Source: Escherichia coli (GTDB lineage: Bacteria > Pseudomonadota > Gammaproteobacteria > Enterobacterales > Enterobacteriaceae). From it: a stretch of 12,329 nucleotides of DNA. Under the pieces are notes generated by a model. It was not told the origin of the DNA, searched no databases, and saw nothing but the letters and a program-made list of their open reading frames with translations. The position numbers and the translations under genes were made by a program. The stretch lies in the NCBI RefSeq assembly GCF_003334315.1, contig NZ_QOWR01000084.1; one strand, given 5' to 3'. This document shows, in pieces, positions 3,308-3,849 of the stretch (position 1 is the stretch's first letter; every line of letters begins with the position of its first letter).

Positions 3308-3849
3308 GTCATAAGTTGTTGCAGACTGACTGCGCGCATTCCGTTGTCAGTTTTCGTGGCGCTTCCGGTGTGGTAGATGACGTAACGCCCCATCCAGACC
3401 ATTAAGTGCTGGGCATCGCCCTGATCGAAAAAAATCATATCGCCAGGCAGCGCCTGGTTTATGTCCTGGCCAATAAACTGGCTGTTGTACTGAATCAAAT
3501 TAATCGCGGTCACATAGGGGCCGGTTTTCCCGTTCCCCTGATTCCAGTTTTGCGCCAGTTGACGCTGTTCAGGTGTTAGCGTCATCTCTGGCGGCAAATA
3601 CTGGCTAGATAAACCGTTACTTTTTAGCCATTTACTGTCGTGAACTTTCAGCGTCTCGTTCGCCGCAAATCGCACCAGGCCCGCACAATCCTGCTGATAC
3701 CAGCGTGGACTTGGCCCCTGGCGGAGCTGTTCTTGTGCAATGCGTACAAACCAGGCGCGAAACAGCCCGGATTGTTCGACATTCAGCATTTCGCTATGGG
3801 CAACAACACAACACAGCCAGCAAATCAGCGCCAGCAGCCCGTGCCTCAT
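3226..3849 (-). CDS. yfaT: Secreted/periplasmic protein of unknown function (DUF1175-type), 207 aa
   Basis: Seen: minus-strand ORF. I take the start as the ATG at 3847-3849 (Met10 of the 216-aa track ORF), which overlaps the yfaA stop as ATGA (coupling signature). N-terminus [19 protein letters not shown] looks like a signal peptide. Memory: length and position match E. coli yfaT. Confidence 0.75.

Follow-up and report, generated by a model that had tools for sequence, protein, structure and literature searches.

The window analyzed here, a stretch of 12,329 nucleotides of Escherichia coli DNA (RefSeq assembly GCF_003334315.1, contig NZ_QOWR01000084.1), carries on its minus strand, in the order annotated by RefSeq, gyrA, yfaA, yfaT, the alpha-2-macroglobulin family pseudogene yfaS with its internal stop codon, yfaQ and yfaP. 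The features on which our analysis relied are collected in Table 1. YfaA matches the NCBIfam model NF008500 (PRK11410; E = 3.4e-274), while YfaT, for which no NCBIfam model matched, is recognized by Pfam PF06672 (DUF1175; 1e-57) together with a weak NlpC/P60 match, and can be aligned from residue 21 onward with the solved structure of MagC from P. aeruginosa (PDB 7BK8; E = 1.8e-103). The 3-kb segment that we tested is 100% identical in E. coli K-12 (MG1655) and is found in all 5426 complete E. coli genomes; a 121-nt segment spanning the yfaA/yfaT junction is present in 5390 of these 5426 and missing from 36. In two E. coli genomes (NZ_AP021891.1 and NZ_AP027745.1; strain 2017.01.04CC / 2017-01-4CC), an IS30-like ISApl1 transposase lies inside the yfaS-yfaT-yfaA-gyrA segment (window positions ~3000-6000).

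Table 1. Features of the yfaA/yfaT junction and their coordinates within the window.
Feature	Position	Strand	Basis
yfaT CDS, 207 aa, DUF1175/MagC family, NlpC/P60-like	3226..3849	minus	RefSeq, Pfam, PDB
Predicted YfaT signal peptide, residues 1-19, cleavage before E20	3793..3849	minus	heuristic
ATGA start/stop overlap	3846..3849	minus	sequence, RefSeq 4-nt CDS overlap, conservation
yfaA CDS, 562 aa, DUF2138/PRK11410, MagB counterpart by synteny, N-terminal hydrophobic helix	3846..5534	minus	RefSeq
Trp-rich YfaA C-terminal tail, conserved, 11 residues	3849..3881	minus	motif across 81 loci
Alternative in-frame GTG (-27), judged not to be the start	3874..3876	minus	ORF list; weak Shine-Dalgarno pairing, -3.0 kcal/mol

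The earlier note on this DNA had described an ATGA overlap in which the yfaT ATG (3849-3847) and the yfaA TGA (3848-3846) have the bases 3848 and 3847 in common. Direct reading of the minus strand, ...ACCTGGCAGCCGCT ATGA GGCACGGG..., with A at 3849, T at 3848, G at 3847 and A at 3846 (in its wider context ...CTGGCAGTGGCTACCCATAACCTGGCAGCCGCT-ATGA-GGCACGGGCTG...), bears out each of these coordinates. The yfaA frame ends with W-Q-P-L-stop at this TGA, and the pair has the properties of a -4 nt (NTGA) overlap, as the two genes are adjacent and co-directional and the start NTG shares its TG with the TGA. With respect to geometry, this is indeed the classic translational-coupling arrangement that had been claimed, in which the downstream start and the upstream stop codon have TG in common. 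The overlap is not new, since the standard RefSeq annotation already contains the 4-nt yfaA/yfaT overlap, and five further E. coli lineages as well as an ST131 genome whose yfaS is intact are annotated in the same way. As the fourth base of ATGA is part of the stop codon, codon 2 of yfaT must begin with A; it reads (3844-3846, minus strand) AGG in K-12 and AGA in ST131 and others, both of them rare arginine codons, and this arginine provides the positive charge of the signal peptide. A programmed frameshift or a YfaA-YfaT fusion was considered, as yfaT lies in the -1 frame with respect to yfaA, and rejected: no slippery heptamer precedes the stop codon and all homologues are separate open reading frames.

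For an assessment of the conservation of this overlap, we compared 81 loci, namely the window and 80 related loci fetched with one genome per species, the latter comprising three other Escherichia, two Superficieibacter, Enterobacillus, Yersinia alsatica, Edaphovirga and ~70 Pseudomonas. In every one of the 81 loci, the TGA stop codon of the YfaA homologue is overlapped by an in-frame NTG of the YfaT homologue, the overlap reading ATGA in 14, GTGA in 60, TTGA in seven and CTGA in none. All nine Enterobacterales loci possess ATGA, and in nine sampled Escherichia alleles the ATGA is invariant, with variable flanking bases on both sides. The last yfaA codon in the nine Enterobacterales is TTA (six) or CTA (three), so that its first base varies while its third base is always A; TTA and CTA together account for only 19% of the leucine codons in the same Enterobacterales genes. 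None of the 65 distinct Pseudomonas-type tails has a C as the third base of its last codon, against a backdrop in which CTC makes up 20% of the leucine codons and C occupies 44% of the third positions; CTT and CTA, both of them rare codons, are over-represented as the last codon.

The Pseudomonas data hold a further signal, in that the last 10 yfaA codons are enriched in A at synonymous sites (AAA 28 versus AAG 6; CAA 15 versus CAG 4) and ATG is also enriched at positions -12 and -27. Judged by codon usage, the 3' end of yfaA in Pseudomonas thus has the clear character of an initiation region embedded in a coding sequence, and a general bias of such regions may underlie part of the codon signal in this genus. 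The A-enrichment and the ATGs at -12 and -27 leave the start ambiguous among three NTGs in Pseudomonas. We therefore rejected the Pseudomonas codon bias as a clean proof of a start at position 0; with A-enrichment spread over the last 10 codons, nothing but the exclusion of C in front of the TGA was used as evidence. Even when restricted in this manner, the codon counts show selection on the start codon in the exact NTGA register, both in Enterobacterales and in Pseudomonas, and the yfaA/yfaT ATGA is, on this comparative reading, no chance four-letter word. Four more distant relatives from metagenomes (~50% identity) have spacings of +1, +4, -4 and +16 nt, and the one with the +16 nt spacer possesses a clear GGGGAGA Shine-Dalgarno motif. 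The spacers of +1, +4 and +16 nt mark the overlap as a feature of the Enterobacterales/Pseudomonas clade and not as a requirement of the family; across the latter, only the tight spacing is general.

The last 11 residues of YfaA deserve attention in their own right. The motif W-x-W-[LIV]-P-[LIV]-x-W-[KRQ]-x-[LM]-stop terminates the YfaA homologues in nearly all 81 loci, and this tail is far more conserved than the remainder of the protein, whose overall identity amounts to 44-51% outside Escherichia and Superficieibacter. The NTG triplets that occur at -12 (CTG in E. coli) and -27 in the yfaT frame arise from TGG codons of this tail. As these triplets are by-products of conserved YfaA tryptophan codons, their presence is no evidence of their use. 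The same region holds whatever initiation signals yfaT has, and the Trp-rich tail may be important for the protein, for the initiation of yfaT, or for both. As a separate observation, the adjacent yfaT and yfaA genes are conserved to very different degrees.

The ATG at 3849-3847 is well supported, by comparative evidence from several sides, as the real yfaT start and not as an internal codon. The program-made list of open reading frames has an entry at 3226..3876 (216 aa), which opens at the GTG 3876-3874, the first start codon of the open frame. Were yfaT to start there, a 216-aa precursor would be made, the overlap with yfaA would comprise 31 nt, and the ATGA would be incidental. The GTG lies in frame, an NTG is found at -27 in most loci, its Shine-Dalgarno pairing is weak yet slightly better than that of the ATG (-3.0 versus -1.8 kcal/mol), and one could conceive of a signal peptide of 28 residues built around the same hydrophobic core. 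We nevertheless regard this start as highly improbable. In E. albertii, the yfaT frame is interrupted by a TAG that precedes the ATG by 15 nt, and as this stop codon falls between -27 and the ATG, a -27 start cannot exist in this species. The -27 NTG is itself accounted for by a conserved YfaA tryptophan codon (CAG|TGG), and coupling efficiency falls sharply toward an overlap of -25 nt (PMC12548453).

The substitution pattern points in the same direction. In the 27-30 nt upstream of the ATGA, pairwise comparisons among nine Escherichia alleles, whose counts are non-independent, yield 111 synonymous to 49 non-synonymous changes in the yfaA frame and 13 to 121 in the yfaT frame, so that the nine extra codons evolve as non-coding in the latter; in the 57 nt downstream, the ratio is 73:88 in the yfaT frame versus 26:143 in the yfaA frame. 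This amounts to a clear switch of reading frame at the ATGA. The O157 allele (L085, E. coli O157:H7 Z1813) differs in two residues of the YfaA tail (T to I, Q to L) through substitutions that are synonymous in the yfaT frame, and these may be taken as a small signal in the direction opposite to constraint on the yfaA frame; the yfaA gene of the same strain is annotated 20 codons shorter at its 5' end than that of K-12. PGAP calls a 207-aa yfaT in every genome inspected, and the dominant protein cluster likewise has 207 aa. Together with the E. albertii stop codon and the frame switch, these calls sustain the claim that the 216-aa open reading frame is over-extended at its 5' end.

The product of the 207-aa frame begins with a canonical signal peptide, as predicted by a heuristic, which consists of the n-region MRH, a hydrophobic core of 13 residues and an A-H-S sequence that fits the -3/-1 rule; the conserved homology of the mature protein starts directly behind it, which likewise favors the ATG as the start. 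A lipoprotein was considered and rejected, as no lipobox precedes any N-terminal cysteine. Full-text literature searches for yfaT and yfaA returned mostly unrelated hits (author names, acronyms) and one microarray mention, with no report on the start site, and the TRAINSPOTTER N-terminomics supplements contain no mention of yfaT, yfaA or yfaS.

How ribosomes reach this ATG depends in part on the signals that surround it. The 20 nt preceding it pair with the anti-Shine-Dalgarno sequence at -1.8 kcal/mol, which corresponds to almost no Shine-Dalgarno pairing, while the same calculation gives -5.4 for yfaA, -6.3 for gyrA and -6.1 kcal/mol for ubiG; moderate motifs (-5.3 to -6.0 kcal/mol) are present at the yfaT start of some relatives. 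The Shine-Dalgarno motif in the upstream 3' end that is typical of reinitiation and usually enhances it, albeit not strictly required for it, was thus not found by this calculation in the yfaA genes of Escherichia. The junction RNA (111 nt) is no more structured than its shuffled versions (z = +0.99; 168 of 200 shuffles fold at least as well). In the minimum-energy fold, the AUGA is unpaired with helices on either side, and the centroid structure is almost open. No Rfam family matched anywhere in the window.

These data bear directly on one of the two models by which translational coupling is generally explained (PMC12548453), in which the yfaT start would be sequestered in RNA structure, melted by the ribosomes translating yfaA, and then be bound by a fresh 30S subunit. 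The helices on both sides of the AUGA in the minimum-energy fold are what this model might lead one to expect. However, a fold no better than that of shuffled RNA and the lack of an Rfam match rank it low; moreover, the start itself is unpaired, and no Shine-Dalgarno motif would be available to the fresh 30S subunit once the RNA has been unfolded. We judge it to be improbable.

In contrast, the absence of an own ribosome-binding site, the absence of a masking structure and a stop codon that shares two bases with the start make termination-reinitiation the most economical explanation. Coupling of yfaT translation to that of yfaA through this route is consequently, in our reading of the sequence data, the most likely mechanism, with a probability of roughly 0.65. 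One polycistronic minus-strand mRNA would comprise yfaA-yfaT-yfaS-yfaQ-yfaP; ribosomes would finish YfaA at the UGA and reinitiate on the overlapping AUG of yfaT; and the synthesis of YfaT, a secreted MagC-type NlpC/P60-like protein, would follow the translation of YfaA, probably at a lower and unfixed level.

Native E. coli gene pairs provide a precedent for this mechanism. The ATGA pairs hyfH/hyfI, astD/astB, ydbH/ynbE and menD/menH operate by termination-reinitiation (Huber et al., 2019, PMC6728339; Huber et al., 2023, PMC10666635). Like yfaA/yfaT, such pairs are co-directional, their ATG shares TG with the TGA, the initiation region lies in the last codons of the upstream gene, and the arrangement is kept among orthologues. 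Their coupling rests on experiment, whereas that of yfaA/yfaT is proposed from sequence. Two further differences concern the Shine-Dalgarno motif, which most overlapping pairs carry in the upstream 3' end and the yfaA tail does not (-1.8 kcal/mol), and the enrichment of overlapping pairs for subunits of heteromeric complexes, as YfaA and YfaT are not known to form a complex. [quoted passage not shown] In E. coli, 707 of the 2987 unidirectional gene pairs lie between -8 and +6 nt (PMC10666635; PMC6728339; PMC12548453), and -4 nt is the commonest spacing of co-directional prokaryotic genes (PMC10666635; PMC12548453); although beyond chance, the yfaA/yfaT overlap is therefore not unusual.

Four of the five native E. 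coli ATGA pairs studied were coupled, while bioBF was not (PMC6728339). The bioB/bioF pair resembles yfaA/yfaT in its 4-nt ATGA overlap and in the very weak Shine-Dalgarno motif before the downstream start, and bioF initiates de novo in a reporter assay; it is the main precedent for the main rival to termination-reinitiation. The overlap would then merely reflect compact packing, with ribosomes binding de novo at the yfaT ATG, independent of yfaA. A 30S subunit could reach the start, given that the AUGA is unpaired in a region no more structured than shuffled RNA. According to one published account (PMC7043885), the selection of start sites in E. coli is not strictly dependent on the Shine-Dalgarno sequence, and the relatives with spacers of +4 to +16 nt indicate that the family can work without an overlap. 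On the other hand, de novo initiation would have to proceed with Shine-Dalgarno pairing essentially absent and from within an actively translated open reading frame. Also counting against it are the strict exclusion of C before the TGA in each of the 81 loci and the invariant A in all Enterobacterales, though selection of this kind fits de novo initiation as well. On balance, we consider independent initiation unlikely, yet more deserving of attention than any other rival to termination-reinitiation.

Coupling also presupposes a common mRNA, and we infer that yfaA and yfaT share one transcript. All junctions within the yfaA-yfaT-yfaS-yfaQ-yfaP operon are tight in the RefSeq annotation, and a consensus scan for promoters and terminators detected nothing at the yfaA/yfaT junction itself. 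The scan found one weak promoter-like site ~500 nt upstream, inside yfaA, and placed the nearest terminator-like pattern at 3835-3816, where it starts 11 nt inside yfaT; over the operon, promoter- and terminator-like counts are at or below the shuffle expectation. An internal promoter for yfaT was accordingly rejected, as the consensus scan revealed none near the junction. Between the gyrA stop and the yfaA start (~5590-5665, minus strand), terminator-like hairpins are followed by T-runs (AAGGGAGCTATCTCCCTT, CCAGGCTGCAAAGTCTGGGCTTTTGT). Because of these hairpins, yfaA probably needs either a promoter of its own in the ~60 nt before 5534 or read-through from gyrA; the scan identified no consensus sigma-70 site in roughly these 60 nt.

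The yfa operon represents the mag or type II alpha-2-macroglobulin operon of Pseudomonas in E. coli. It contains a DUF2138 gene, a DUF1175 gene of the MagC family and a gene of the alpha-2-macroglobulin (A2M) family, and the same order is found in metagenomic relatives. With respect to the P. aeruginosa magABCDEF operon (PMC3735191; PMC5764988), YfaT is a close homologue of MagC and the A2M gene comes next in both organisms. YfaA corresponds to MagB, which is encoded directly upstream of magC; the two are alike in their size of ~62-64 kDa and their single N-terminal hydrophobic helix (PMC3735191). In the ~70 Pseudomonas loci, the genes for the MagB and MagC homologues are adjacent and joined by the same NTGA overlap, which in Pseudomonas is mostly GTGA and has to compete with ATGs at -12 and -27, while the form in Enterobacterales is ATGA. 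Unlike the Pseudomonas mag operon, that of E. coli has no magA-type gene before yfaA, where gyrA and a terminator are found instead, and the K-12 yfaS is a pseudogene, in contrast to the Pseudomonas A2M gene. The closest relatives outside the Enterobacterales are from Pseudomonas, with amino acid identities of 67-78% for YfaT and 42-49% for YfaA in the best local alignments; this unusually close link between Enterobacterales and Pseudomonas suggests horizontal transfer of the operon.

The Mag system also speaks to the contention of the earlier note that the overlap supports fixed-stoichiometry co-expression, which is unsupported: coupling sets a dependence and not a ratio, the Shine-Dalgarno motif is absent, and MagC is undetected in the Mag complex. 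Removal of the Shine-Dalgarno motif lowered reinitiation in four of five E. coli pairs (PMC6728339), so that reinitiation without such a motif may, by analogy, be inefficient at yfaT. If the two genes are coupled, YfaT synthesis would depend on the translation of YfaA in an unfixed ratio, with a frequency of reinitiation that is probably low. Large amounts of MagB co-purify with the macroglobulin MagD of P. aeruginosa. Mass spectrometry has, in contrast, at no time revealed MagC, be it in immunoprecipitates or in membrane and periplasmic fractions, and MagC and MagD did not assemble into a stable binary complex (PMC3735191; PMC5764988). By extension from Pseudomonas, these data speak against a YfaA-YfaT complex of defined stoichiometry, while leaving room for an interaction between MagB and MagC.

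The next junction downstream is more curious than the yfaA/yfaT overlap. In 68 of the 81 loci, the ATG of the macroglobulin gene overlaps the yfaT/magC stop codon as ATGA, an arrangement that endows the protein with a normal signal peptide, and the Pseudomonas magC/magD junction follows this pattern. By contrast, the Escherichia yfaT/yfaS junction (3226-3229, minus strand) reads ATAG, where an ATA in the yfaS frame overlaps the TAG stop codon of yfaT; all Escherichia, Superficieibacter and a few Pseudomonas loci have ATAG, ATAA or CTGA at this position and thereby a near-cognate ATA or CTG in the yfaS frame. The yfaS of Escherichia consequently has no canonical start at the overlap. PGAP starts yfaS at the GTG 3202, also in the intact copy of the ST131 genome (1504 aa), which yields V-G-T-G-L-A-N-A|D-D and no signal peptide, and this GTG lacks any Shine-Dalgarno pairing (+0.6 kcal/mol). 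Other canonical start codons are available only at ATG 3292 and ATG 3307, which overlap yfaT by 67-82 nt and are by-products of conserved YfaT tryptophan codons; the K-12 yfaS, which is annotated as a pseudogene on account of its internal stop codon, is represented in the window by an open reading frame at 71..3307 that ends at 71 (71-73, minus strand).

One could envisage the Escherichia yfa operon as a chain of reinitiations that lack Shine-Dalgarno motifs, in which only ribosomes terminating YfaA at the AUGA make YfaT and, an ancestral ATGA having become ATAG, the same ribosomes start YfaS on the near-cognate AUA that overlaps the yfaT stop codon. We regard this chain as a rather doubtful proposition; if it were true, nature would offer an example of a large secreted protein that is started by reinitiation at a non-canonical codon.

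By itself, the yfaA/yfaT overlap matters little, as it is already annotated and represents the most frequent spacing of co-directional genes in E. coli and in prokaryotes at large. Our analysis confirms the 207-aa start call for an uncharacterized protein of the MagC family and corrects the idea that an ATGA overlap implies a fixed stoichiometry of the two products. The comparison of related loci shows selection to act on the overlap in both Enterobacterales and Pseudomonas. As a natural ATGA pair that does without a Shine-Dalgarno motif, yfaA/yfaT could help to measure how strongly reinitiation depends on this motif.
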